From the NCBI GenBank assembly GCA_021432655.1, contig MU271247.1, positions 1 through 64,000 of the forward strand: a stretch of DNA of 64,000 nt, written 5' to 3'. Of the stretch, positions 19,226 through 64,000 are shown one piece after another (the stretch's first letter is position 1; each line of letters begins with the position of its first letter). The translations under genes were made by a program, and so were the position numbers. The notes below the pieces were generated by a model that was given only the letters and a program-made list of their open reading frames with translations, did no database searches and had not been told where the DNA came from. Source of the DNA: Atractiella rhizophila. Lineage: Eukaryota.

Positions 19226-23422
<4,197 letters not shown>

Positions 23423-24639: not shown

Positions 24640-26124
24640 ATTTACATCATACAAAGACAACAGGGATCATGATAGTCATCAGAACACAAAAGCGGTCCAT
24701 CTTTACCAAGGGACAAACCTATCCTTGGCGTCGAAGAATTTGTCCCAACTCTTGCTCATGCTAAGCCAACGAAACGATTCATCCTCTTTCAAGGCTACCC
24801 CAAAACCTTTGATTTCAAACGTCTGAAGTGTGGTGATGTTTCCGAACACTTTTTCTGCTAGTTCCGAAGTGATGTTGCGTTCCTCCTACATTCACTGTGA
24901 TCAGATTATGTTCACACAACACGAAATAATGAAACCTACAGAACGGGAATTCCTTATCCATCCTTCTGCCTCTGCTCCCATGTATGAATTCCCACACCAT
25001 GGTAAACTATAACCGACATTCAGGTCAACGGTCGGTGGAATCACCAGATGGGAGAGGTTCGGGAATTTTCGTAAGGACGGAATAAGCTCCTTTTGAAGAA
25101 AATGTCAATGAAATTTGTCAAAAGAATGATTCGGCGCACAAAAACGCTCTCCCGTTCATCATAAGGTCGCTGTTTTAGGCGACCACCAAGTTCTACCGTA
25201 GATAGTGTTGGAAGGGCATCGAAGACATCTACTCCAATAAACTTCAGCTCAGTCCCCTTTCGTGAGAATCCTACCGTCAACTTCCGCCACAGTCCACTCC
25301 TGCTGCTCGAGTGATAGCTCAGAAAGATTGCGATTTGCAGCGCTCTGCAACAGTTGTTTTATGTTCTCCCGTAGCCTGCCTTGTTCGCCATATTCGTGAA
25401 ACCTCGTCCACCAGGACGGTGCTGTGATGTCCAGACTTTGGAGATTTGGAGATACGGAAACAAAAACCGAACAACACGACATGAGATTCAAGCTCTTCAA
25501 GTTGTCTAATTGATCAATGGTTGAAGAGAAGGTGCTTGTGAAGTGTTCTTCGTCTTCGGGAGGAATCAGAAGCGCAATCTCATCCACCAACGGAAAGTCC
25601 TGCAGAAGGTGAGTGAAAATTGCTCCCGCTTCTTTGACAGTATCGTTGCTAGTATCAGTAGTGGTGTCGACTTCAAGATGAAATTTCCTGAATTGTCGTC
25701 AGCAATTACCAACGAGCCGAGGAGGAGAGGACCTTGTATACTTCCTCATCGACTGACAATCGTCCAACATTGTCAGCTTTTGAAGCAGCCTTTCCCAGCT
25801 TCCAATCATTGTCACGTTCACAAAGCTCTCTCCAAACCCTCCAACATCTTCAGCGCACCAAGCTGAAATAGCATCTGTCGTTGCCTCTCGGACTTGGAAA
25901 GCCAAATCCGCGTCCGCGACCAGAACGGACAAATTATGAGGAAGTGTCTTGGGAGGTTCAATGCTGCCTAGTAAGATTTGTCGTGCGTTCTCCCAAGGGT
26001 CCAAAGATGCAGGTTCCTGGGCTTGTTTGGGCCAGGACTTCTGTAAGATGTTTTGCTCCAAGTATTGCCAGGGATCAAACGCGGCCGAGAGCAGCAAGAG
26101 AGTGGGAAGGAAGAGCAAATGCAT
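24640..26124 (-). CDS. Hypothetical secreted protein, multi-exon; 3' end approximate
   Basis: Signal-peptide-like MHLLFLPTLLLLSAA followed by successive minus-strand ORF blocks (25699-26124, 25249-25590, 25041-25280); no recognised family. Confidence 0.45.
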
Positions 26125-26596
26125 GACTACCGCCTTGTTCTGCTAGTCCCTCAAGAAATCACTCGATTTTGCTCCCCAGAGAGCAGATTGAGCTTTAAGG
26201 GAGGGAGTGCCACGTCAAGGTTCGTGGTACATGGATTGAACAGACAGCCCTACAAATGCCGCGGGGTGTCAAGTCATGCTATGGTCGAAGATCTAAGCGG
26301 TGAGAGACCTCGTTATCTGAGCTCTATGTGATTGTTACGTATCCATAAGTTTCGCTTTAGTTTTTCATGCAGAATTTATTCCAAGTTGACAACGCCACCG
26401 ATATATCATTAACCAGAGCCGCAACCGAAGTGAGGGCAGCATGTTCATTTATAATGCAGATTGCATTTGACAAAGAATTGAGGATATCTTCTGAAATATA
26501 ATTGTAGCTAAAAAGACAGATGTTAACAGAAACAACATTTCCAAGGCAAGGAGGTTGATTTTCCCCTCAGGTTGTAGAGAAAGACGAATCGCTTAT

Positions 26597-27346
26597 TCAA
26601 ACATTGTAACCATAGCCGTATTGCGGTTGGTTTTGGTTTTGATTTTGCTGCTGAGCATCTGAGTTGTAGCTCGAGTTCTGGTACACAGGCTGCTGTTGGG
26701 GCTGATAACTTTGTTGGGGTTGTTGGACATTCGTCGCAGCTGCCGTCGTCTGCCCATTATGGGTGGGTATTATAGGTTGCGTCATGTCCAGAATACGCTT
26801 GGGATTAGCCACCGCGGCAGGTCTATGACACTTTCAATCATTTAGTCAGCAAGTGCAAAATGAACGAACCCGGGAAAAGTGAGAGAGTTGACAAATGACA
26901 GAAGGAGGAAGACCACGCCGCAGAAACCTATGATTGCGCCGGCTCTGCGACCTTCTCGTCAGTTCATTGTTCACCCTGGCACGAAGTAAGGCAATGAGAC
27001 CGTACATATTCAAAAATAATCTATCGCTCAAATTGAGCACTCCAAAGAGCACATAAGCCGCTCCCCTGCACACTCTTCACTCTCTGTTCTGCAAGCACGA
27101 AAAGACGACGAACCGTCCTCCAAAAGTCCACCAGCCCTTCCAGTTCTCCACCAGTTTATTTCTGGCATTCTCACCACCTGGATACCTTCCCAATTCCGTA
27201 GCAGCGATCAAAACACCAAATAAAGCGGTATAAGCTCCAATGAGCGCATTGGAGAAGCTGAAAAAGATGAAATGTCCGACTGCACCGACGATAAGGGCTG
27301 CAGCGACGACGAGGTTGACGAGACGGAAGAGAGCGGAGATTTCCAT
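26597..27346 (-). CDS. TVP15: Golgi membrane protein, COPI-associated (Tvp15-like)
   Basis: MEISALFRLVNLVVAAALIVGAVGHF...IGAYTALFGVLIAATE...WWTFGGR|GAAYVLFGVL; Q-rich tail. Confidence 0.75.
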
Positions 27347-27643
27347 AAAGCCTGCTTTAGACGTTGGATTTCCTGTAAACGAATGTTGGGAACGAGTGTT
27401 GGCAGCTAATCAGCGAGTAGATGGTGGAATTTTGACAGTGTTTTGAAGCACAAGCACCTGAAGCACAGAACCAGCCTGAAGCACGAAGGAAAAGGAAGGT
27501 GTTTCGTCCGCGAATCGGCCCGCTTTATCAACATTGCGCTGTCTGGCGTACCTGGTGTACGTTGGACGTACGTCACCTCAAACCACCAAATCATCCTCAC
27601 TCCCAGCAAAACCTCTCTTTCTCCCTTGCATAATCTCCTCAAA

Positions 27644-28265
27644 ATGTCCTTCGTAATTGCAGGTAACGTCTTTCTCTGGTGCTCCGCATATTCGAATTCT
27701 CATGTCGTTTCAGGCCGAAAAGTCGCTTCCGAATACGTGAGCTCAAACAGTCAACTCTCTGTCCAAAGGTGTGAACTTACATTGGTGGAAGATCGCTATT
27801 GCGACGTTTACAACCTTTGGGCTCGGTGTTTGGGCCGCTACCCGCGGTAAGAAGTCGGAGCAGAAGGTTGTGGAGCCTGTGAAGCAGAGCATTGGTAATG
27901 CAGTCGGGTAAGCTCCTTCTTGCTCTGAAAGTAGAGAGAAAGCAGTTTGGCAGCGGCGCTGCTGCGTGGACGCTTTTGCACCACTGAGTAACACTGAGAA
28001 ATATTTTTCGTATGTTTCTTCAGGAGTGACCTCCTGCTCTCTCCGAGGTGGAGGCTGCACTACTTGAAAGTGAAATAATGGTCGAATAAGCTTTTCGTGG
28101 CCAGATTGGTTTAGCAAACAAAATCGCTTGACATTCCCTTGCAAAACTTTCCAACATATCACATGCTGACAACATTTGATGGGGAATAGAGAGGAGGAAG
28201 CTTTCATCCGCGACTTCGTAGCTCGTATGGAGAGGGAAGACACAGCGACGAAGAAGGCACACTAA
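27644..28265 (+). CDS. ATP19: Mitochondrial ATP synthase subunit k, copy 1
   Basis: Spliced MSFVIAG|RKVASEY|IAIATFTTFGLGVWAATRG...GNAVG|EEEAFIRDFVARMERE; short N-terminus, one TM helix and EEE.FI..F motif. Confidence 0.75.
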
Positions 28266-28960
28266 TATCATAACTCACCGAATGTCTCCTTCTACCACCA
28301 TAGATGGAATACAACAGTCGATGCCGTCCCTGTCAAGTTAGTTTGTTGTGAGGTTGTGGAGCGGACTCAGAAACCTTGGAGTTGAGTTGTTGCTTTTCAA
28401 CGAAGGTTTGTCCCAGCCATCGTGTTCCCAGTCTCTTCCAAGCATCCTACCCAGCGAAGAAAGTGATCCATCAAGTTCTCCTTCCAGTTGAGCCCGTCAT
28501 TGAAGCAAACTCCCCAACGTCCCCTTAACTTTACACCCTTTCCATACGTCCCATTCTTGTATCAGTACGGAGGTCTCATCCCTACAGTGCTGTGTTATGA
28601 GGACCATTTGAGGCAGGTGAAATGCCAGAACTAGACTTGAAGTAAGATGAAAGGTGGAACAACAGCTTTTCTTTTAGGATTAATTTCTTTAGCAAGCATC
28701 GTCTGAACTCAACTCAGCACCTGTGGAGTATATGTTGCTGAGAAAGTTCTGTATTCACATAAAGTCCCTTCAATGCGTAGCACTGTAACTTCTCCTATGT
28801 AGAGATAATCCAGGAATGATAATCTTCAATATTCGACAACTTGCACGATTTGCCAATAGCAATTCCGTTTCCGTAGTTTAGTCTGCCATCAAACCTTAAT
28901 TTGCGGCTGATTGTTTTCTTTAAGCAAAGACATTCACAGGTAAGAAGAAAGGAGAGCAGG

Positions 28961-29596
28961 ATGAAGATCGAGCAGTGTTCTTTCTCAGGATTCAAGATCT
29001 ACCCCGGCAAGGTGCGTCTTTCTCTCCTAGTTATCTGCGGAATGGTTGGCCGAAGTGGGTTGCTGGCAGGGTAAACTTTACGTTCGCCTCGATTCTAAGG
29101 TCTTTCGCTTCGTATCTTCCAAGAATGAGAGCCTTTTCCTCCAACGCAAGAACCCCCGAAAAATCGCTTGGACCACTGTTCGTCTACCCATCTCATTCAC
29201 GACCTCTCCCTCATCCGCTCATTTATGTATTTGGGACATGGATCAATAGGTTTACAGGCGTGTCCATAAGAAGGGAATTACAGAAGAGATTGCCAAGAAG
29301 CGCTCGCGAAAGACCGTGAAGCACCAGCGAGGAATTGTTGGCGCTGACATGGCATCTATCCTCAAGCTTCGGAACCAGAAGCCGGAGGTATGTGCTCTCC
29401 ACATTCAATAGTGGCTGTTTTCTGAGCTCTTCGGTTATAGGTGAGGGACGCGGCTAGGGCTGCTGCAGTGAAGGCGGCTAAGGATGAGAAGAAGGCGAAG
29501 GAGGAGAAGAAGAAGGCATCCAAGCCTAAGGTCTCGATCGCTGGTGGTGCCAAGGTTAGCAAGCAGTCAGCAAAAGGTAGCAAGGCTGGACGATGA
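28961..29596 (+). CDS. RPL24: 60S ribosomal protein L24 (eL24), copy 1
   Basis: [31 protein letters not shown]...[24 protein letters not shown]. Confidence 0.97.
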
Positions 29597-29946
29597 GCAA
29601 TCCAATCCTCTTCTATTGTTCAAAAAAAAAAAAAAAAAAAAAGAGCGGAGATTTCCATAAAGCCTGCTTTAGACGTTGGATTTCCTGTAAACGAATGTTG
29701 GGAACGAGTGTTGGCAGCTAATCAGCGAGTAGATGGCGGAAATTTGACAGTGTTTTGAAGCACAAGCACCTGAAGCACAGAACCAGCCTGAAGCACGAAG
29801 GAAGGTGTTTCGTCCGCTCATCGGCCCGCTTTATCGTTGCACTGTTGAGCGTACCTGGTGTACGTTGGACGTACGTCACCTCAAACCACCAAATCGTCTT
29901 CACTCCCAGCAAAACCTCTCTTGCAGCTTAGCCTAATCTCCTCAAA

Positions 29947-30543
29947 ATGTCCTTCGTAATTGCAGGTAACGTCTTTCTCTGGTGCTCCACGTATTCAAAG
30001 TCTCATGTCGTTTTAGGCCGAAAAGTCGCTTCCGAATACGTGAGCTCAAAACAGTTAACTCTCTGTCCAAAGGTGTGAACTTATGTTGGTGAAGATCGCT
30101 ATTGCGACGTTTACAACCTTTGGGCTCGGTGTTTGGGCCGCTACCCGCGGTAAGAAGTCGGAACAGAAGGTTGTGGAGCCTGTGAAGCAGAGCATTGGTA
30201 ATGCAGTCGGGTAAGCTCCTTCTTGTTCTGAAAGTAGAGAGAAAGGAGTTTGGTAGCGGCGACGCTTTTGCACCACTGAGTAACACTGAGAAATATTTTC
30301 ATGTGTTTCTTCAGGAGTGACCTCCTGCTCTCTCCGAGGGGGCTGCTCTACTTAGGATGGTCGAATTAGCTTTTGTGGCCAGATTAGTTTAGCAAACAAA
30401 CCGCTTGACTTTCCCTCGCCAGATCTTTTCGACATATCACATGCTGACAACATTTGATGGGGAATAGAGAGGAGGAAGCTTTCATCCGTGACTTCGTAGC
30501 TCGTATGGAGAGGGAAGACGCAGCGACGAAGAAGGCACACTAA
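29947..30543 (+). CDS. ATP19: Mitochondrial ATP synthase subunit k, copy 2
   Basis: Same exon structure as copy 1, with synonymous changes and one T>A substitution. Confidence 0.75.
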
Positions 30544-31231
30544 TGTCACAACTCACCGAACATCTCCTTCTAGCACCCATAGATGGAATACAAACAGTCC
30601 ATGCCGTCCCGTTCAAATTAGTTCAGATGCACATTGGACTCAAATGCTTCAAATGCCATTTAAGTTGCTGCTTTTCAACGAAGGTTTGTCCGAGCCATCG
30701 TGTTCCAGTTTCTGCCAAGGATCCTACCTAGCGAAGAAAGTGATCCATCAAGTTCTCCTTACAGTTCATCCCGTCAACGAAGCAATTTCCTCCTACGTCC
30801 TCTCAACTTTTCACCCTTCCATACATCCTGTTCTTGTATCAGTACGGATGTCTCATCCCTACAGTGCTGTGTTGAGGACCATTTGAAGCAGGTGATGCCA
30901 GAACTAGACTTGAAGTAAGATGAAAGGTGGAACAACAGAGGAATAAATTTCTTTAGCAAGCAATGTCTGAACTCAACTCAGCACCTGGGAGGATATGTTG
31001 CTGAGAAAGTTCTGTATTCAGATAAAGCTCCTCCACTGCGTAGCGCTGTAACTTCTCCTATGTAGAGATAATCCGGGAAGGATAATCCCCTTCCCCTCAA
31101 GAGTCAACAATTCCAGCGATTTGCCAATAGTAATTCCGTTTCCGTAGTTTAGTCTGGCTCGAACCTTAATTTGCGGCTGATTGTTTTCTTTAAGCAAACG
31201 ACATTCACAGGTAAGAAGAAAGGAGAGCAGG

Positions 31232-31869
31232 ATGAAGATCGAGCAGTGTTCTTTCTCAGGATTCAAGATCTACCCCGGCAAGGTGCGTCTTTCTCTCCTA
31301 GTTATCTGCGGAATGGTTGGCCGAAGTGGGTTGCTGGCAGGGTAAACTTTACGTTCGCCTCGATTCTAAGGTCTTTCGCTTCGTATCTTCCAAGAATGAG
31401 AGCCTTTTCCTCCAACGCAAGAACCCCCGAAAAATCGCTTGGACCACTGTTCGTCCACCCATCTCATTCACGACCTCTCCCTCATCCGCTCATTTATGTA
31501 TTTGGGACATGGATCAATAGGTTTACAGGCGTGTCCATAAGAAGGGAATTACAGAAGAGATTGCCAAGAAGCGCTCGCGAAAGACCGTGAAGCACCAGCG
31601 AGGAATTGTTGGCGCTGACATGGCATCTATCCTCAAGCTTCGGAACCAGAAGCCGGAGGTTTGTCCTCTCTACATTAAATAGTGGCTGTTTTGTCTGAGG
31701 TCTTGGGTTATAGGTGAGGGACGCGGCTAGGGCTGCTGCAGTGAAGGCGGCTAAGGATGAGAAGAAGGCGAAGGAGGAGAAGAAGAAGGCATCCAAGCCT
31801 AAGGTCTCGATCGCTGGTGGTGCCAAGGTTAGCAAGCAGTCAGCAAAAGGTAGCAAGGCTGGACGATGA
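31232..31869 (+). CDS. RPL24: 60S ribosomal protein L24 (eL24), copy 2
   Basis: Exons appear identical to copy 1; differences confined to introns. Confidence 0.97.
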
Positions 31870-32095
31870 GCAATCCAATCCTCTTCTATTGTTCCACACC
31901 TCCTTTCCGCGCTATGAAATACGTATGTTATGCTTGTATGCCATGGATTTATTCGGTGAGCGGTCGTGTTGCCTTTGTGGAGTGGTGGAAGTCAACAGAC
32001 TCTCTTTCGCACTTCACCCTATCTAACGTCTCTTTGATGGAGGACTTAGTAACGTGTGCATGTGCAAGCAGGTCAGTATGATCTCTAGGCTACCA

Positions 32096-33169
32096 TTAAG
32101 TAGTCATATAAAGAGTAATCCCCTTCCGTTTCTCCGTCATCTTGACCAAATCATTCCATCTTCCTGGCTGATGCCTGACGATAAGAGTCTTCAAGCCTAA
32201 ACAAGCCTTGTCTCTTTTTCTCACATCTACCAGACCCGCTTCCTTTAAGGGCTCGATAAATGGGCCGGTGGGCCTTCGTTCCAATCCTTCGATCTCCTCT
32301 CCTCCAAGTAAAGCATGCATGAGAGCAGTAGTACCGTCCGCAAAGAAATAGAGATCCAATTTCGTGACAGACGGAGGAATGTGATAATATATTGTGGGAT
32401 CCCGGAGGGACGTTTTGTAGTACAGTTTAAGAGTGAGAGATTCGAGCAGTGTGAAAACTGAAATGACAGGGAAAACATCTAGTTCGGGCATGGTTAGGTC
32501 CAGTGATAGATGTCGTAGGGAGCTAGGCATGTGGTTTGATGTGAACGGACTGATGGGAGTGACGATGCTGAGAGACTCGAGGGAGAGGTGTTGCAGACCA
32601 TGAGGAATGTTGACGTTGCGCAAGCTGAGTTTGCGTAAAGTGCAGGGGAGAGCGTCCGTGCTTTCAACCTGGAATGCATATAGAAGGAGTTCTTCTAGGA
32701 AAGGAAAGTGGGAAAGCTGGGGCAGCGTTTGGCGTGCTGGCGACTCCCAGCCATTAGATGTAACTTGAATCGCCAGACTAACAATTCGGATATCAGCAGC
32801 TGAGCAAATTGACGCCACGCACTCGATTTGTCGACCAAACGTGGATTCAGCCAGTTCCATTGCCCAACTAATGGATATTTTCCGCAATCCACTCATCAAA
32901 CTGAGGGCTTCGACCTGCTCGGAATCCAAATCGAATGTCGAATCAAAATCCAGCTCTTTGATAAACTGACAAAGTCGCGTATGTTTGATCAAGTGTCCCA
33001 GGTATTTCGCATTCATGCTCTGCATGACGAGGGACATCACCAACGGGTAGAACGCGTGTGAGATGACTGAGAGACGTTTCAGATTCGTGTCGTTCCAATA
33101 GAGGAGCGAGACGATCTCTTGAAGGATTTCGGGAGGGAGACTGGATAGACTTCCAGTCGATTCAGACAT
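32096..33169 (-). CDS. F-box protein with LRR-like repeats (single ORF)
   Basis: N-terminal LSSLPPEILQEIVSLL; LxxLxL repeats (LRKLSL, LRHLSL, LESLTL, VTKLDL). Confidence 0.8.
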   Translation of the reverse strand: MSESTGSLSSLPPEILQEIVSLLYWNDTNLKRLSVISHAFYPLVMSLVMQSMNAKYLGHLIKHTRLCQFIKELDFDSTFDLDSEQVEALSLMSGLRKISISWAMELAESTFGRQIECVASICSAADIRIVSLAIQVTSNGWESPARQTLPQLSHFPFLEELLLYAFQVESTDALPCTLRKLSLRNVNIPHGLQHLSLESLSIVTPISPFTSNHMPSSLRHLSLDLTMPELDVFPVISVFTLLESLTLKLYYKTSLRDPTIYYHIPPSVTKLDLYFFADGTTALMHALLGGEEIEGLERRPTGPFIEPLKEAGLVDVRKRDKACLGLKTLIVRHQPGRWNDLVKMTEKRKGITLYMTT

Positions 33170-33909
33170 GATACGCCTCGTGTAGGAAGAATTTCGAAAT
33201 TGAGTAACGTCAACTGAGAATCACCGCCGTCTCCAACACAACAGTGGGTTGATTACTGATTGATGCTGCTCTCTAAAGCTTCCATAAGTACGCGAAGCAG
33301 GTAGTCGCAACATGAACTCACTGTGTACCCTAAGAATGGTTGATCCGCTTCAAATGTAGAACTTCATATTCTAGTCAACAACACAGTTCGTGATGTGGTG
33401 GTTTGCTTCTCGGACATAGATTCAGAACCGCAAGGCAGTGCAAGCAACTCTGGCGGAGGCATGTTATCTGAGTAAACATCACGAAGTCATCATGGACATG
33501 AATATAATATGCCTCGATGGGTTGCAAAGAGCGACAGAAAGCCTAAACCTATGGGACTACTCATATGGCAAAATGCTTCGTTGTGCTGTGAAGAACAAGT
33601 TCATTTTGGTTGTAGGTGGCCGTGAATTCAACGCAGCAAGGAGAGCACGAAATTGAGAATTTCAACACATATACCTCAACGAGTTGAAGTAACGTTGAAG
33701 CTGTCGCAACAAGTGCGAGAGGCAAGTGAGTGAAGGGGTGGCGGCAGTGTCGGCGTTTCCAGAACAGGAGCAACAAGAAGATTGCCTGTGACATCATGAT
33801 TCCCTATTCCTCTTATTCCAAACAATCTTCATTTCTACCAACTAACTCACAACCACCTGGACAGTTTGAAACCTCAAAGACTTCATAAACATTTATAGCA
33901 ACAAAGTCA

Positions 33910-36900
33910 ATGGATCTACCCTCACTCGTACGACTTACCGATCCCATTCGTCGCCTCGTCTCTGGACGTAAGGCAAGATGGACCTCGAAAGACTATGATT
34001 TGGACTTGATATACCTTACTGATCGCATAATTATTATGGGATATCCTGCTTCAGGCCTCGAGGGTTTGTATCGAAACGATAGAAACGTAGTGAGGAAGTG
34101 GCTCAAGGAGAGGTATGGAGAGGATGGGTGGTGGATCTTTAATTTGTGCGTCTCTTCTTTTGCAATCGAATTTCGAAGTGCGGTGTTTTTGGAAGGAGAG
34201 CGTTAGAACTAGTATGGCTTTCCATTTCACCTTTGAGGTCCTTTGGCTTCCTCCCAGGGTGGAGCTGCTGCCATCAAAAAGCTTGCATATAATACGACGC
34301 GAGCGTTTTTGACATTGAATGGCACATGTGCTTGGTACATTAAATTCTCGCGTAGTGTCCAAATAATCTGCTGGACCCTTTGTTTTGAAAACACATCAGG
34401 GATCTGCTTTATGAAGCATATGTAAAGCACCATGATCTAACCTTGGTCTACACATACATTCCATTTCCATCGAAACTTGTTGTGCATCTCCTAACTCGCA
34501 TCTCAAAGTCAAGTTCTATGCCAGCTCAGACTTGTGATACAGCGCATACTGTGAAATGTATGTTTCCTGCCTCGCTCTTTTTCAGTCTTCCGGCTATATT
34601 TCGTTTTGGCAATTCATGCCTTACCTCCAGCATACAGCTAGATGGTTTGGAAAGCATTGAGGTTAGGTGAAAACTGACACTGAGGCATGGGATGTTAATA
34701 TGCCGGACGATGAGATGGGGCGAGAGTGCAAGAGTATCCCACAATTTATTCTGAACATATATCAGCCAAAACGCCAGTCTCTACTTGGACTTTGCCTTCC
34801 TTTTTAACTGAAAATGACAAAGAAAAGGCAACCTCACATTCATTGCTGCTGCTAGAGCAGTTCGGTCTGTGAACCTAGCAGCTCTCGTATTGCACTTTCA
34901 CCAACGTGAAAGTGCTGCGCTCCCAACTCTACAGCTCTGGGCTCGTGTTTGTTACTGTTGATGGTGTCGAACTTTTGATGCCGCCTTTCAAAACAAATGG
35001 TCCGTGCGCAACAAGGTGCGCACGGACACATTAGGTTACCATCTTGCCTGTCCAATCTACTTTCACCATCTGAGTGGGTGAGACAATGGAGCACTGACTA
35101 TGTTCAATCAGCTGTCCACGTTTTGAGAACCAGTATCCCGCAGAATTTTTCTCGAACCGCGTCTCGCGCTATCCATTCCCAGGTTCCGCCTCTTTTTCTC
35201 AGGCAGAGTAGAATTCATGCGTAAATAGATCATCACCCCCCACCACTTGCTCTGATACCGATTTACGTGCACAAGATCAAAGAATGGATGCAAGGAGATG
35301 AAAGTCGAGTCTCAGTGATTCATTGCAAAGGTAAGTGCATTCTTTCAAGTCCAACATTATGTTCAAATCGTTCCTAGCTGGCAAAGGACGGTCCGGAACG
35401 ATGGCCATTTGTTACCTCCTATTCATGCCTTACCTCCAGCATACAGCTAGATGGTTTGGAAAGCATTGAGGTTAGGTGAAAACTGACACTGAGGCATGGG
35501 ATGTTAATATGCCGGACGACGAGATGGGGCGAGAGTGCAAGAGTATCCCACAATTTATTCTGAACATATATCAGCCAAAACGCCAGTCTCTACTTGGACT
35601 TTGCCTTCCTTTTTAACTGAAAATGACAAAGAAAAGGCAACCTCACATTTATTGCTGCTGCTAGAGCAGTTCGGTCTGTGAACCTAGCAGCTCTCGTATT
35701 GCTCTTTCACCAACGTGAAAGTGCTGCGCTCCCAACTCTACAGCTCTGGGCTCGTGTTTGCTACTGTTGATGGTGACGAACTTTTGATGCCGCCTTTCAA
35801 AACAAATGGTCCGTGCGCGACAAGGACAAGGTGCGCACGGACACATTAGGTTACCATCTTGCCTGTCCAACTACTTTCACCATTTGAGTTGGTGTGTGAG
35901 AATGGAGCACTGACCATCTTCAATCAGCTGTCCGCGTTTTGAGAACCAGTATCCCGCAGAATTTTTCTCGAACCGCGTCTCGCGCTATCCATTCCCAGGT
36001 TCAGCCTCTTTTTCTCAGGCAGAGTAGAATTCATGTGTAAATAGATCATCACCCCCCACCACTTGCTCTGATACCGATTTACGTGCACAAGATCAAAGAA
36101 TGGATGCAAGGAGATGAAAGTCGAGTCTCAGTGATTCATTGCAAAGGTAAGTGCATTTTTTCAAGTCCAACATTATGTTCAAATCGTTCCTAGCTGGCAA
36201 AGGACGGTCCGGAACGATGGCCATTTGTTACCTCCTCTCCCTCCCATCTATGCCCAAACCGCCACAGCTCGCGTCCAATCGCTCAGCCTCTCTGGGACCT
36301 TTACCGTCCGATAGTCCTCACGATTCTACTGCGTCTCTCAACTCTTCGAGCACCAAGACTGGCGCTGTTGCCCGTGCTGGAGAGGGTCAGAAAGGTACTG
36401 GAGTAAGGGAAGCCGATCAAGAGAAGGCCCAACGCTTAGTGGAAGGCCTTACAAATCAGATGCTAAGTTCAGGCAAGGGGAATCCCTTATCCTCTAAAGA
36501 GAAGGAAACGCAAGAAACTGCAGATGATCCCAATAATCCAGGTGGGAATATGAAGCTCGAACAGGGGGAGCTTCCGCAAGAAGCAGGGAGAAAAGTGCAG
36601 ACTGGAGATGAGAAAGAAGAGGGAGAGAAGACGGCGAGTCAGAAGATCGTGGATAGTGTCAGGAAGGGGGCAATGGCTAAGGATGTAGAGGATATCGGAC
36701 CAAGTTCGCAAGCTGCTAAGGAAGAGGCTCTTGCAATGGCTGACAAACTCGCGTGCGTTCTTGTCCCTGACAAAACATTCGATCACTCATAGGTCCTGCA
36801 GACATGTTTTTGAGTACGCGAACACTTTGACCTATTTTCCCTCGACTAATTGCATTCAGTTTACACACGTCTCAGCGGATGAAAGGTCGCGGTCAGGGCG

Positions 36901-43232: not shown

Positions 43233-46200
43233 CTAGACGGCCAACTCCCTTTCCTTCTTGTCCAAATGGTCCCTATGTCCATGTGCAAACGGTGCAGACG
43301 CCTCCAACACCCTCTCCTTCTGATCTTCCTTCTCCTTCTCCCGCAGGCTCTCACCATCATGGTCTTTCTCTTTCGTGCCAAGATCTGACGACGAGACGTC
43401 GTGTAAGTCCTCGTCTTCCTTCTCAGGGAAAGTAGCGAGGATGGGGGCGTCGACAAATGTCTCAGTTGGAGGCCAGAAATAAGAGAGTAGAGAATAAATG
43501 ATGATAGTGAGGACGATACCCCAGAGCCAACCGACGAGGAAGATCCATTCTATCGATCCCACATGCACTGAATCGCATCGCATTCAATCAGCATTCATCA
43601 GAGACATTCAAATAGAGAGAAGAGACGCGTACCATCTGGGTTGATCGATTGAATCAATCCAGGGAACGCGGGAGGGACGACGAGGAGAAGNNNNNNNNNN
43701 NNNNNNNNNNNNNNNNNNNNNNNNNNNNNNNNNNNNNNNNNNNNNNNNNNNNNNNNNNNNNNNNNNNNNNNNNNNNNNNNNNNNNNNNNNNNNNNNNNNN
43801 NNNNNNNNNNNNNNNNNNNNNNNNNNNNNNNNNNNNNNNNNNNNNNNNNNNNNNNNNNNNNNNNNNNNNNNNNNNNNNNNNNNNNNNNNNNNNNNNNNNN
43901 NNNNNNNNNNNNNNNNNNNNNNNNNNNNNNNNNNNNNNNNNNNNNNNNNNNNNNNNNNNNNNNNNNNNNNNNNNNNNNNNNNNNNNNNNNNNNNNNNNNN
44001 NNNNNNNNNNNNNNNNNNNNNNNNNNNNNNNNNNNNNNNNNNNNNNNNNNNNNNNNNNNNNNNNNNNNNNNNNNNNNNNNNNNNNNNNNNNNNNNNNNNN
44101 NNNNNNNNNNNNNNNNNNNNNNNNNNNNNNNNNNNNNNNNNNNNNNNNNNNNNNNNNNNNNNNNNNNNNNNNNNNNNNNNNNNNNNNNNNNNNNNNNNNN
44201 NNNNNNNNNNNNNNNNNNNNNNNNNNNNNNNNNNNNNNNNNNNNNNNNNNNNNNNNNNNNNNNNNNNNNNNNNNNNNNNNNNNNNNNNNNNNNNNNNNNN
44301 NNNNNNNNNNNNNNNNNNNNNNNNNNNNNNNNNNNNNNNNNNNNNNNNNNNNNNNNNNNNNNNNNNNNNNNNNNNNNNNNNNNNNNNNNNNNNNNNNNNN
44401 NNNNNNNNNNNNNNNNNNNNNNNNNNNNNNNNNNNNNNNNNNNNNNNNNNNNNNNNNNNNNNNNNNNNNNNNNNNNNNNNNNNNNNNNNNNNNNNNNNNN
44501 NNNNNNNNNNNNNNNNNNNNNNNNNNNNNNNNNNNNNNNNNNNNNNNNNNNNNNNNNNNNNNNNNNNNNNNNNNNNNNNNNNNNNNNNNNNNNNNNNNNN
44601 NNNNNNNNNNNNNNNNNNNNNNNNNNNNNNGCGCACCGTTGGCACCACTGATCGTGTTACCCGTCACATTGACCGAGATCTGAGCAACGGCCCATGCGGC
44701 AGAAGCGAAGAAGACAGCAGCTCTGGAATCCCACTTGGCAATGATGGCGAATGGGGACCAAAGATAAGTGCCGTAGACATCGTGAGAGCAAGAGGCACCA
44801 ATGATACCGAAGAGGCCAGTGATGAGATAGAAGAAGGGGAGGGTGACCAGCTGGAACCACTGCCAAAGTGGGCGCTTGGTATAACGAGAGAAGTCGGGAC
44901 TACATGCCATTCATTCTTAAGGTTCTTTCTCGTAGAGGAGTCGGGGAAACGTACATGTTCACTGCTACGGTGGAGTAACCGCCGATGACGGAGTTGAGAG
45001 AGAACAACCAAGCGTGAGTGAACGCGGTGCCATGCACTTGGGACTTCGCAGCAAGAAGGGCTCCTCCTCCTCCGGCCTTGTCAGCGATCCAAGCAACGGT
45101 GGCGATCATGACGCTAAATTTTGGCCGTGAACACAGCTACATACTTGGACAAGAGGAGATACGCTTACGCAGGCACAACCAGGACTTTAAGGATGAAGAG
45201 GAAGCGGAGTTTGGAGGGATGAATGAGGAGGAAGGGGTACTGCAAGAGCCAGAAGAGGAAGCTATGTTAAAGTGCCTTAGAATGTCTCTTTTAAATTTGA
45301 TGAAAGTGACTTACTAGGAAAGCAGCTGCTGGCTCGTCACTCCACCTCCCTTTGGGAGATGATTGGGGAAGTGAGCATAAGAGGGCCAAATAGCGCGAAT
45401 CATGCCAGTGATTGCAGATCCACCTGTGGCGCCAAGTCAATCAAATTTGCACACAGCGAATCAGAAAAATAGGGAGGCATACCATTCCAAGTATTGATGC
45501 CGAACCAAAACCAACTCAATATCAACCTAGAAACGACGGCAAAGAGTGAAAAGTAATATCCGAATGATGTGCGAACGGTCATCGGGAAGGGAATGTGAAG
45601 GTAGGCGCCCATCGCACCATTGAGGACCATCGCTGCAGTGCATAAATGAGTGCCGTAGAGGGATGGAGAGAGAAAAGGAGCAGCATACGAATGGACAAGA
45701 GGAAGGAGCCAAGCGCCATGATTCCCATGGATTGGCGCCAATCAAGGCCGAGCGCGACGATTGAACTGCCAAGCATCACCATCCGTCGACCGTTTAGTAA
45801 TCGCTTCATTGCTCCCTACCTACTGGCGGTAGGGTAGAGACAGGATAACTTACGCAGCTTTTTGCCAGATGGTTGCGGTGAGAAGGTCGGAGAACCAGTA
45901 GGCAGCTGTTCGTTGCAGCTTTGTAAGCACAAGCACCCCTGCGACAACTCGAGAAGAGGAAAAAGAGAGAAACGGCGTACCCCATGTCCAGAAACCCCAT
46001 GTTCGCTGCCATGGTGGTGTCGGATCCATATCGGCATTGGTATCCACTCCCTGCTCAACCCAACCAGCAAATCCGGCCAAGATTCAGGGCACCATCCGAA
46101 ACGTAACATCACGGTGGCGAGGTGAGATGTGCCATCCAAGCAATCAATAAAAAAGCAACATGCAAAAGCAATGTCAGAATCTCCATCGACCAGCCATGTA

Positions 46201-58290: not shown

Positions 58291-61200
58291 TCATGCGGGC
58301 ACCGGCGTCTTGCGACCTTGGCTAATGAGGGCCAGCCGCTCCTCACGCCTCGATGCTATTCTTTCCTGCGTTCTGGAAGGCGGTCGTTGTGGTAGGTTTG
58401 CAGGAGTGGTAACTCGGTCCTTTGAAGAGAGTCCAGACTTGGGAGTAGGAGCTTCGTTTTCCTTGTCCGCTTCTTCCATCACAGGCTCGACCGTACTCGT
58501 CCGCTTCGCTCTCGGCTTGAATTCATGGTTCATCAGAGGAGTTTGGAACGTAGCAAGGTCGTGATGAAACGTTCGACGCGCGCGAGCGGTGGAGAAGTTG
58601 GCGTTAGATACTGCACTGTTGAGGACACGGTTTGACGGACGACCTGTCGGCATAGACGAACGAGCGGTGGAGGGGACCGTGGACGCTGTTGTGGTACTCG
58701 ACTGAAGCTTTCGCCCTTGTGACTCTCGTCGCATTTCTCGTTTCAGCATAGAAAGCTCTTGCTGCTTCGCCTGTGCCACCCAATGGATGAGCTCAGATAT
58801 ACATGAACAGAAGCAACGCACTTCAAGAGCAATGTTGAGACCTTCCACATCATCCGCAAGCTCGCCGTTAGCTTTGTGAAGCTGAGCAATCGCAACTGTA
58901 TTTCTCATCAGCGAAGATTCAACCTGGAAGTATCATCTCACCATCTCTCTCTGCCGAATCCATTCGCATCCTGCCCAATCGTGCTTGACAATCCTTCAAC
59001 TCTTTGCTGAGATTTGACACCTGACTCGCCCTCTCTACGCATTGGCTACACTCCTTGTTGACCTGAGTTTCAAGTTTGAACTTCAACACGCTCAATTCTT
59101 TCTCGCACTCCGACCGTTGAAGTGAGGTGATCTTCAATTCATCCTGTAGCATGCGTACCTTTTCTTCGTTCTGAGCCGCATCGGTTCGAAGCGTCGACAC
59201 ATCAGCGAGAAGGGTATCTACTTGTTGCTCAAGTGCCACTTTGAAAGCGCGGTCGTGGGACGCTGATACAGATTGCGCATTTAATCGATTAACCTCTTCC
59301 TGTAGTGCTGAGGTTTTTTTTTCCAGATCGAAACGTCGATGCACGGCGGACTCGTAATCACGTTTGAGAGTGGTCGAGAGCGCATCGAGCTCAGAGATCT
59401 CCTCACGAAGTCTGCTGTTTTCTTCCTCTAATTGGCTTTGGGATCGCTGTTGGTACTGAATGTCTGACTTGGACCGTGTGACAACTTCTTCCAATTCCCG
59501 GATCCTTCTTTGCAAGTCTTCCTCTTCCCCCTTAGTTGAAGAAATCACCTGTTCCAATCGTTCGAGCTCCTTTGACTGGACCTGAAGGGCGTCATCCTTC
59601 ATAGCGAAGGCCTCTTCGGCTTCGGTTAGGTGTGCCACAGCAGTTTCGCGTTCGTCGCAAGCTTTTGCGAGATCGAACTCTAGTCGATTCTTCTCCTTCA
59701 TCAAAGCCGCCTTTTCCTCCTTCAAGCGATCAATGCTCGACTTGAAGGTGCCGAGTTCTGCTTTCGCCATCACAAACTCCTTCTGAGCTTTGTCTCTCGC
59801 CTCGACTGCATCTTTGGCTTTCTCTCTTTCCAGCTTAACCGTAAACTCATCGTCTTGAATTTGGCTGGATTGGCGCCGCATTTCGATTTCGGCTGCAACG
59901 AGCTCTTGCTCGACCCCTTGAAGACGTGAACATGTGTTCTCCATGCTCCTGACCACACCTTGCAGCTGGATGCATTGCTCTCTTTTCTCTTCCAGCTCCA
60001 GCTCCAGCTCTGCTACTTGGCTCTCCAGCTCTCTCCTATCCCTTCCGACCATGGACATATCTCGGGCTTTGTTGATTTCCAGGTCCCTCGCTCGTGTCGC
60101 CGCTTGGACGGCTTGATCTCGAAGGTCCGAATTTTCTTGCATCAGTTGCTCCATGCGAGTCTCATAAGTCTCAGCAGCCGACTCAGCTTCTTTTTGTGCC
60201 GCTTGAGCATGCGACAGTCGAATTTGGAGGTCTCGAATCTCAGTCTTCGCGTCCATCAGCTCTCCATCGTCCACCTGGGACAAGGTCTGGGCTGGGACAG
60301 CTACAGTGTCTGTGTTCCATTCACCCTGCCGAATACGGCTCAGGGCAGTCGTGAGAGAGGTTGTGGCTGGTGATGTGCTTGAACCGGAAGGCATTGACTC
60401 CCACTTGCGGGCAGTATCAAGGATTGCTTCCCATTGGCTATCGGCCTCTTCCTTCTCTTTCTCTTGTAACTGAAGTAGCTTGTCCTTCGCTGCAATATCT
60501 TTCCGAAGATTGATGACTAAGGCGAGCAAGAGCGAGTTTTTGTTGGACTTGACATGAAGGAGATCTCGCTGAGAATTGAGCAAGTCTCCAACTGTCGCTT
60601 CTTCGAAATCGAAGAAAGCTGTTTCATCTTCGGGCAAACCATCTGTGAGGCATAGCTCTGGAGGTGCAGATAGGCGAGCCGTTCGAACCGGTTTGGCGCT
60701 AGGCAGCGGTAGAGAGGCTGAGGCTGAGGCTCCTGCCCACACAATAGGTGGAGGTAATGGCGAGGCAGGTCGATCAGTAAAAACGGATGGGAATTCCGTC
60801 TCTTCCCGATTGTTATAGGCGAAGGATTTGGCTGCCGAAGGAGTATACCAAGCGAGAGAGGCGGAATTGTCGACACCCGGAGTGAAGATGATAGACCCTT
60901 CTTCATCCGATTTGCTACTTGGAGGCTGTCGCGCGGGGGTTATCAAAGCTTCGTCAACTAAATCTGATTTGAGGTCGCTCGTAGTTTCTTCCTTAGCTTT
61001 CGTCCCTGGAGGTTCAATGTTATCCGACTTCAGCAGTTGGTTGAAACCGTAAGCTGGGGGTCTATTGTCAAGGTCAAGCGAAGACTGAGGACTGGCAATT
61101 CTGGAACGAAAAGGAGTGCTAGTGTGTCTCGAAGCGGCGAACGAATCGATACGGCCAGCGGGAGTTGGTAAGCTGATCGAAAGGCTGTCAAGATTATCTT

Positions 61201-63973
61201 CGTGTGTAGGGCCTTCAGGCGGTGATGAAAATGATCGATTAGTACTTCTTCGACTGAGGTTTCTGATACTTCCTCTGGACAAGGAAGTGGGCAAGACATT
61301 GCGAGAGATATCTAAAAGATGGTAAGCGAGAATGAAGGAACTGACACGTTGGAATACTACACACCAGCTGAGGCGTCCTTTGCCACACTTTGGCCTTCTC
61401 TGCGCGATAAAGAGGCTCGAAGCGAATTCCTTCGTGACGCACTCTTTTTAGAGTTCGTTGAAATATTCTGTATCGACAAGCTTTTGGACATATCTTTCTT
61501 TGAGACATCCTTTGAGAGCTGAGACGTCTCTTCCTTGCCCGCCGAAGTTCTCTTGTCTTCATCCTCATCATCACTTGCGAGCAATCTTGACAGCTCGACG
61601 CTTTTATCCAGAGCTTTAAAGATAGCCTCTTCGTCCTTGGAGAATTTCTGGCTACGAGATCCAAAAGGACTCCGTTGGCCAGATAAAGAGGTTGCGTCCA
61701 CAGCAGGTGAAGCTGGATCCGAAGCTCTGGACGATTTCGAAAGACGAAGTGACGTCCTTAGGGAATCTTTCAAAGACGGTTGCTCCCGACGATTACGGGA
61801 AGCATCTGAAATACTATCCCACTCAGCAGAGAATCCTTCCTTCGGCTCGTCCCTCGCTGGCTCTTCTGCGTAGCTCGTGTGCGGTGGAATGGGAAGCGCC
61901 ATTGTCTGCGAGACGGCGTTGGGATAGTCGAAGGTGACCAGGGAGACATTTGGAGATATTGGGACGGGACTCGCTTCGCGGTCTTCCCCCTCTGCATGAT
62001 CTTCCTCCTTCTCAACATCAAAACTCGGAATGCCAGCAACCAATTCGCTCAATCTTCGCTTGGGCATCATTTTCTTGAGCGCTGAAAGGTCCCCAGTACT
62101 TTGGTTCATTGTCAGCTCTTCAAGGAGAGACGCGCGCTCCATTTGTAATGGCTCTTTCTTGGGCGTTGTCACGACCGGTGCTGGAACGGGAGAAGAATTG
62201 TCGCTCATAAAGCTGAGGTTCAGAGACGAAGCAGAGACAGAACGTTCGCGCTCAGTCACTTGAAGTTGGGACGCAGGACGCTGGGGACCGTTCTGGACAT
62301 TCGACAGTGGCCGGATGGATGTGGAGAGCGATGGGGATGCTGATCGTGCTCTTGACAATCTGGCACCCTGTGGCAGAGGGGTGTACGAAGCGGCGAGGGG
62401 AGAAATGGTCCTTGCACGAGCAGTCACAGTGGGGGGAGGCGACGTTCTATTGACCGGAGTCTTGACTGCAACAGAAGCAGCGAGGTCTTGCATGCTTGCA
62501 TCCTCCTGAGCAAAAGTTCGACCCTCCTGCCGACTTCTACTCAGACGCTCTAGATGTTGTTCTTCCTCTTCCTCGATGACGCTTAATCCTTCATGTTCGC
62601 TCCGATCTCCTAGGCCGCTCAACCCCTCCATACTCTTCAATCCATGTGCCACTTCGGGTTCCGAAACGTCAAAAAGATTCGAGATATTGAGCATCGTGTT
62701 GCTGAACTTGGCAGTGAGGTTGCCGCGAGTTCTTCCCTCTCCTCCGTCCCCACCATACGAATGAATCCCAACGCTGAGGTCCATCCCATCCTCGTCTCTC
62801 TCCGCTACTGATTCCGCATCCTCGCTGAACCCTTCAAACGAATCCTCCTCTATCAGCTTCCCTTCCGGTGAACGAACACTCCTGGGATGAGAAGGTTCAC
62901 TGCTCCCGCTCTTCTCCAAGGAGGATTCGGGAGATGGGATCAGGCTCTTCAGACTTGCCATTAGGCCATCCCCTCCGTCACTCGCAGAAATAGACGATTC
63001 TCTGTCCACAATGATGCTCCTGCTCCTCTTGGATGGGGTTGGACGCAACAATCTGGAAACATAAACGTCCGATCCAGCAGGCGAAAACGGCGCCACATCA
63101 TCGAAATGAAGTTCGGAGTCGTCAGCATCAACATCAGGCGGCAGCAACGAAATTTCACTATCCTCCGCTTCTCTCGCGAAACTTTGATCCTGTTCTGAAC
63201 TGCTTTCCACCATCTCTCCGAGTCCCACGGAACGTCTCTGCTTGACGTGTTCAGGCGAGGGCATCTCAAGCACAGCGGAGAACTGAACACTCTTCCCGCT
63301 GCCAGGAGTACGCTTGATGATACTCCTGATACTGGGAGTGCTCGACTGCCGCTGAAGCGTTGGAAGCGGAGTCATGGGCAACTGCGCGGGGGTAGGCAGG
63401 GAGTGACGCTTTGTCTTCTTCATAGAAGAGGAAGGAGTAGGTGAAATAAGTCCTGGATCTTGTTCCTGTTCCTGTTCCCCTTCTGGGGAGGAAGAGAAGA
63501 CGGTAGGTGGCGGAGAGACGACTGGCGTAGTAGATAGGCTGCGTTCGCGCTGATTTCTACTCTTCAAAGGGGTCTTTTCCTCTTCCTCGTCCTCCATCCC
63601 TTGAGATGAAAAGCCCGAGTCTCCTAAAATGTCCATAGAGAAACCCTTGCTATAGAAACTTGGTGGTGTGTCGGGAAACGGGGAGAAAGGTTCTTTTGCT
63701 TCTTCGCCCAGAGCAAAAGTAGACAGTCCAGGAGAAGATGCTGATGTGGTTGCCGGATTGAGGGAGCGAACACGCGGGTGTCGGAGGGAGCTGGAGGGAA
63801 GGGGTGGAGGTAGTGGAGAAGGGGTTGTTGATTGTTTTCGAGGTAGTGGCGCGCGAGCTGGTGTCGATGTTGGTGATAATGTAATAGATAGATTCGAGTC
63901 CTCTGTAGGGTTATGATTCCAATTCATATCCATCCACTCTGCAGGTGAAATACTCACCTCGAGACGCTTCCAT
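58291..63973 (-). CDS. Large protein with disordered N-terminal half and coiled-coil C-terminal half, Cut12-like spindle-pole-body candidate
   Basis: Three long ORFs joined by short introns; first exon MEASR; SIIKRTPGSGKSVQF motif; long heptad-rich region; C-terminal DVEGLNIALE|AKQQELSMLKR. Confidence 0.8.
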
Positions 63974-64000
63974 GATTGGGTCCAGAGCTGTTGCAGTGGA

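Follow-up and report, generated by a model that had tools for sequence, protein, structure and literature searches.

The window analysed here, a 64,000 nt stretch of Atractiella rhizophila DNA, contains a PTEN/TEP1-like gene transcribed on the + strand, whose exons, introns and intronic features are listed in Table 1. The exon 1 product is 56-64% identical to eight of the 41 candidates in a protein search, seven of the eight being named basidiomycete entries, and also matches PTEN/VSP chains in the PDB. A gene model joined by coordinates has no stop up to and including the catalytic HCKAGKG motif. It matches P0002 with an E value of 6e-65, its 3' end being only partly modelled. The four introns modelled in addition to intron 1 are 46, 47, 40 and 46 nt (range 40-47 nt). 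We note that no Atractiella PTEN protein is present among the 41 candidates, and public gene models may miss a PTEN exon 1 that lies behind a long intron. Elsewhere in the window, the product of a Lys2-like frame (205-2019) shares 97% identity with an Atractiella rhizophila protein, with the next match at 62%, which points to this fungus or a very close relative as the source.

Table 1. Coordinates of the PTEN-like locus and of features within its first intron.
Feature	Position	Strand	Details
Exon 1, PTEN/TEP1-like	33910..34145	+	78 codons + 2 nt; from translation
PTEN intron 1, 966 nt, U2-type	34146..35111	+	phase 2 in codon 79; GTGCGT...CAATCAG
5' hairpin	34269..34324	+	only long stem predicted with high confidence in the 5' 400 nt; pair probabilities 0.74-1.00
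Inverted repeat, left arm, 18 bp	34373..34390	+	17/18 matches to right arm
Domain A, predicted rod-like, many G-U pairs	34556..34762	+	helix probabilities 0.67-0.99
Domain B, predicted hairpin cluster	34791..35090	+	Watson-Crick stems of 7, 8, 10 and 11 bp, with further weaker stems
Perfect 10-bp hairpin	34892..34915	+	pair probability 1.00; U-U mismatch in copy 2
Inverted repeat, right arm, 18 bp	34986..35003	+	last 4 nt overlap the 11-bp hairpin
Perfect 11-bp hairpin	35000..35027	+	pair probability 0.89; two GTGCGC motifs resembling the 5' site of the intron
Branch-point motif ACTGAC (putative)	35093..35098	+	from sequence; branch A predicted at 35097, position unmapped
Exon 2	35112..35182	+	RNA contigs and joined gene model
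Intron 2, 46 nt	35183..35228	+	joint in X3 contigs
Exon 3	35229..35330	+	RNA contigs and joined gene model
Intron 3, 47 nt	35331..35377	+	joint in X3 and X5 contigs
Tandem second copy of 34612-35420	35421..36236	+	97% identical, 19 differences

The RNA evidence consists of assembled contigs from four runs (X3, X4, X5 and X6) among the 18 listed; the other 14, which include two further soil metatranscriptomes with shares of 0.05-0.07 and both DNA runs, carry no weight here. Contigs from two of the four, X3 and X5, carry a joint from 34145 to 35112 with GT and AG at the ends of the skipped 966 nt, and the PTEN intron 1 proposed in the initial annotation is therefore real; its removal restores the reading frame in the contigs and in the joined model. 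The GT...AG ends and a branch motif close to the 3' end are those of a U2-type intron. As far as the contigs tell, the intron is precisely excised in one GT-AG step, and they contain no alternative joint within it at a 5% share. X6 contigs cover exon 1 only, and one X3 contig runs through the 5' splice site as far as 34476. Run X4, a soil metatranscriptome, provides two 151 nt contigs of similar depth, 34744-34893 and 34903-35053, which are probably the mates of one molecule because they are of read length, equal in depth and 9 nt apart; that molecule could be a stable RNA, but equally pre-mRNA or DNA. No cover is listed for X3 between 34496 and 35078 or for X4 on the exons, and such contig gaps prove nothing.

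The intron has no credible open reading frame, as had been proposed from inspection: the longest stop-to-stop frame is 93 codons, and none of the 15 frames scanned (out of 29 listed) reaches the Pfam cut-off. Long frames at 43691-44630 are artefacts of a scaffold gap of 940 N. Several sequences in the intron resemble splice sites. AAG/GTGCGC at 35013-35021, in the 11-bp hairpin, resembles a recursive-splicing point and the intron's own 5' site, and weaker points of this type are seen at 34664 (TAG/GTGAAA) and 35032 (TAG/GTTACC); the contigs contain no splice joint at any of the three. At 34205-34217 an AG, five bases and GTATGG could mark cryptic splice sites or a micro-exon of 5 nt. They lie 61-68 nt from the intron start, an ordinary intron length, and this candidate has neither an upstream branch motif nor a joint in the contigs.

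In the alignment, residue 78 of the PTEN-like protein corresponds to residue 69 of the human protein. Human PTEN intron 3, which PMC5599331 places after c.209 (c.209+1), is at the same codon and in the same phase, although no relationship in sequence is to be expected. The comparison set comprises 47 metagenomic PTEN-like loci, none of them closely related to Atractiella. Of these, 33 are fungal-type (many redundant, and including two Rhodotorula-like loci) and are continuous across the site with no intron; two basidiomycete loci, L040 and L042, contain introns of 60 and 56 nt at the same codon and phase, and the others are protist-like (10) or broken (2). The position common to L040, L042 and human intron 3 suggests that it is old, a parallel gain being less likely. 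Introner-like elements are introns at newly created positions, and the apparent age and shared phase of this one argue against such an origin. Intron 1 has no sequence similarity to the 47 loci (best E value 1.8), and none of these related loci has a long or similar intron.

A more uneven picture emerges from the folding of the intron. The initial annotation described an end-to-end array of hairpins, and all of the stems it named are present where it placed them. The array itself does not hold: the 645 nt at 34146-34790 fold with a z score of -0.41, with 11 of 40 shuffles folding as well, and stems of at least 7 bp are only mildly enriched across the intron (8 against a shuffle mean of 3.7, with 12 of 300 shuffles reaching 8). 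In the intron ensemble the stem of the 5' hairpin (34274-34312) has mean pair probabilities of 0.92 and 1.00, and those at 34792-34831 and 34848-34882 (gctgctag/ctagcagc) have means of 0.91 and 0.69; catgcctta/tgaggcatg reaches 0.90 with flanks, and tgctttat/gtaaagca only 0.22. Two perfect short-loop stems of at least 10 bp, as found here, are matched in 0 of 300 shuffles.

The whole intron folds at z -4.0 (20 shuffles) and the segment 34791-35111 at z -5.8 (40 shuffles). Domain B scores -4.34 as RNA on the + strand, -3.22 as RNA on the - strand and -5.06 as DNA on the + strand, each with 0 of 200 shuffles as good, and a 200 nt window at domain A (34546-34745) scores -3.7 (+) and -2.7 (-). Both domains fold somewhat better on the sense strand, where domain A is rich in G-U pairs. 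A background scan scored both strands in 878 windows, each 120 nt long, over about 53 kb (all but approximately 24,960-32,040 and 60,900-64,000, about 10 kb), and among its 869 running means over four windows the best on the + strand starts at 34801. The folding excess of the 3' half is accordingly real, with a z score that is not near zero and the strongest sustained + strand stretch of the scan, and the 5' 645 nt taken as a whole fold like shuffles. The strongest single 120 nt score (z -6.0, 12 shuffles) is on the - strand at 33061-33180, near the start of a 374-codon frame (32096-33220) without a Pfam match. Pairing between the two halves of the intron is at chance level (of 70 shuffles, 7 equal the total energy and 10 the gain), and the global fold shifts once exon flanks are added. 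Taken with the scores of the separate halves, these predictions indicate that the local hairpins of the 3' half are robust and the end-to-end architecture is not.

The segment 34612-35420 is followed by a tandem second copy whose differences are most frequent centrally and disappear towards both ends, and the same is seen in two other tandem pairs in the window. These, at 19226-22109 (86% identical) and 27327-31894 (91%), have few differences at their ends and many between, and are probably haplotypes assembled in series. An array of 228-290 nt units at 22052-23340, with introns in some units, is presumably a polyubiquitin gene. The X3 and X5 contigs that pass 35420 do not go back to 34612, and the X4 contigs have the copy-2 base at 34841 together with copy-1 bases at later positions. 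We infer that 35421-36236 probably represents the other haplotype, placed in series by the assembly, although a true duplication that splicing skips is still conceivable. Run X3 contains two exon alleles, with five differences in 142 nt of exon 1 (33942-34083) and one in exon 3 (35329), and the second of these alleles differs from the copy-2 form.

Copy 2 retains the 11-bp stem, with an A-U pair changed to G-U and a 6 nt insertion in the loop, and the 10-bp stem gains one U-U mismatch, both as originally reported; the mismatch changes the stem from -15.0 to -10.8 kcal/mol. None of the 12 intron substitutions between the copies is compensatory. On the whole-intron fold seven break pairs and one keeps a pair, and on the 3' fold four transitions keep pairs, six transversions break them and two are unpaired. 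Divergence is lower in 34612-35050 (seven events in 439 nt) than in the last 61 nt (eight events), but its deficit relative to the small introns, which have 3 events in 93 nt, is not significant (Fisher p 0.20, with six events entered). An X3 variant at 34280 is compatible with the 5' hairpin through a shift of a bulge; among 168 single changes, 5 stabilise it to the same degree.

The initial annotation saw no terminal repeats, which is correct for the intron ends; inside the intron it overlooked an 18-bp inverted repeat. None of 300 shuffles equals this repeat, nor does any of 64 tiles of the window, although the tiles cut through the pair itself. Its 12-bp core pairs at 0.55 in the intron alone and at 0.02 with 50 nt of exon flank, and the repeat is therefore not a stable predicted helix. 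Judged as the terminal inverted repeats of a MITE or similar non-autonomous transposon, the arms (17 of 18 positions matching) are 631 nt apart and internal; by eye the flanks differ, with no target-site duplication beside the repeat, which together with the overlap of the right arm and the 11-bp hairpin argues against a clean transposon end. Fungal MITE and fold-back inserts are similar in being non-coding, with an inverted repeat pair, hairpins that score as DNA and lineage-specific expansion of old introns, but differ in the target-site duplication missing here and in that the repeat of intron 1 is internal and overlaps a hairpin. Helitron 3' ends consist of a hairpin, then CTRR, then a host T, and on the - strand a CTAG is present 13 nt past the 10-bp hairpin, but by eye the next base is G. 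The 64-kb window has no further copy of the intron besides the tandem duplicate, similar DNA is absent from the plasmids and phages searched, and the hairpin patterns are absent from viral contigs. The 11-bp hairpin pattern does occur in 28 prokaryote loci, and these are chance matches because BLAST (four matches of at most 43 nt) shows no similarity beyond the stem.

The scenario we favour as the most economical, with a probability of roughly 0.55, is a lineage-specific expansion of an old intron carrying passenger hairpins, probably as the relic of an insert. In the Atractiella lineage an ancient intron, sited where human PTEN has its intron 3, would have swelled to 966 nt from an original length of about 55 nt. 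The added sequence would be mostly an old non-coding insert. It may be what is left of a decayed non-autonomous mobile element, perhaps the 631 nt that separate the arms of the 18-bp inverted repeat together with their flanks, or it may have arisen through local fold-back events. The hairpins would be passengers that fold locally, bring the splice sites no closer together than random sequence does, and would be degraded along with the lariat; the data need no separate RNA product. Expansion is supported by the intron sizes in L040 and L042 and in the remainder of the gene, and an insert by the rarity of the inverted repeat in shuffles. That the hairpins are passengers is suggested by core stems that are purely Watson-Crick and score as well for single-stranded DNA and on both strands, by the lack of compensatory change at all 12 sites and of any Rfam match, and by the chance-level pairing between halves. 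Counted against an insert with passengers are the absent target-site duplication, the overlap of the right arm, the lack of a second copy in the window and of a protein remnant, the sense-strand bias and the G-U richness of domain A; the lower divergence of 34612-35050 and the location in domain B of the only X4 cover also weigh against passengers.

A second explanation, unlikely but deserving of consideration, is that a structured non-coding RNA of about 500-700 nt, restricted to this lineage, resides in the intron and is trimmed after release from the lariat. The 18-bp repeat would close it as a helix, and domains A and B would form its body. This reading is consistent with the strongest sustained + strand folding in the scanned window in a sequence that is single-copy there, with the pairing of the 12-bp core in the intron alone, and with the X3 variant at 34280 and the four transitions (of four) at paired sites of the 3' fold that keep pairing; intron-hosted RNase P and MRP RNAs are reported in animals (PMC9849065). 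The two X4 contigs are the only hint of expression and, as one probable read pair, may derive from DNA or pre-mRNA. Against it, the closing helix is lost with exon flanks, transversions between the copies break stems (the 10-bp stem among them, the variants being unpolarised), and the PTEN loci compared include no long orthologue.

Nor does such an RNA fit any known class. No Rfam family reaches its gathering score in the 64 kb, and sub-threshold matches such as mir-310 (24.3 bits against a gathering score of 48) are chance; no tRNA was found. For RNase P/MRP there is a partial RNaseP_nuc match (8.1 bits, E value 3.4, gathering score 28) on the - strand at 34896-34849, which is rejected, and no pairing CR-I/CR-V set in order on either strand by the familiar consensus patterns. 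A box H/ACA RNA is rejected since ANANNA (34990) and ACA (35028) flank a 28 nt hairpin with no guide pocket and are both mostly paired in the ensemble, and a box C/D RNA since there is no exact RUGAUGA and the lone + strand site with one mismatch (34707) is changed further in copy 2. Familiar motifs of the hammerhead, SRP helix 8, Sm site, snR30, U3 and Pol III boxes give nothing coherent in the intron, and the U1-like words CUUACCU, ACCAUGAUC and AUUGCAC are present but out of order.

The Ustilago maydis telomerase RNA (PMC9564094) is alike in being a structured region of about 1 kb in a basidiomycete protein-coding precursor, but is described as derived from a 3' UTR and as carrying the template UAACCCUAA for TTAGGG, which the Atractiella intron lacks on both strands. 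A TTAGGG template is missing from the + strand of the intron at up to two mismatches and has one two-mismatch match on the - strand. A TTAGG telomere variant is known in some basidiomycetes, and template words of that type are near chance (a 7-mer at 34437 on the + strand, and 8-mers at 35038 and 34667 on the - strand). No convincing telomerase pseudoknot or closed P6.1 stem is seen in the intron by eye. An intron-hosted telomerase RNA is known in nematodes. A literature search surfaced no Atractiella telomere repeat, no report of a Pucciniomycotina telomerase RNA and none of a PTEN-intron RNA in basidiomycetes. We consider it improbable that the intron encodes an undescribed, lariat-processed RNA of 500-700 nt closed by the 18-bp repeat, be it of a new class or a far-diverged form of an essential RNA, for example the telomerase RNA of Pucciniomycotina.

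The folds could instead act in cis on PTEN, masking cryptic splice sites and tuning retention or premature termination, with some transcripts then routed to decay by the in-frame stop at 34204-34206; we regard this as doubtful. The X3 contig reading past the 5' site is compatible with this but is what ordinary pre-mRNA yields, and two GTGCGC motifs, one of them in the context AAG/GTGCGC, lie under the 11-bp hairpin, although the two are a single palindromic event and no alternative joint at a 5% share accompanies them. Among the closest known systems are the long structured U2-type introns of Saccharomyces (class 4, Rangan et al., PMC12350175), where intron stems are described as protecting cryptic sites and affecting splicing, and where a zipper stem is defined as at least 6 bp at high confidence with a linker of 42-85 nt to the 5' site and branch point. 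Intron 1 differs in having predicted folds alone and no zipper-stem excess, in being twice the usual yeast long-intron length, and in belonging to a basidiomycete with introns of 40-60 nt. Its 7-bp zipper candidate is weaker than the shuffle mean (-5.3 against -6.3 kcal/mol, with 127 of 200 shuffles as good) and its core falls from a probability of 0.76 in the intron alone to 0.0 with flanks; the effective distance from 5' site to branch point is mid-range among 63 shuffles.

The suggestion in the initial annotation of a structured non-coding RNA or splicing-control element keeps the folding excess of the 3' half in its favour, but is otherwise possible and unsupported. With no long orthologue among the loci compared, no compensatory change between copies and no known class that fits, no structural conservation is seen within the reach of these comparisons.

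On the favoured reading, the intron is a modest case of an ancient intron position absorbing 900 nt, with splicing accuracy kept, in a genome of 45 nt introns. If a stable RNA were nevertheless made, this would add a new intron-borne RNA to a fungal subphylum where the catalogue of non-coding RNAs is poor; an apparent loss of most H/ACA families is described for several Pucciniomycota (PMC5824354), and the screen in PMC8216456 is presented as one of Ascomycota only. Its synthesis would then be coupled to a gene of the PI3K pathway.
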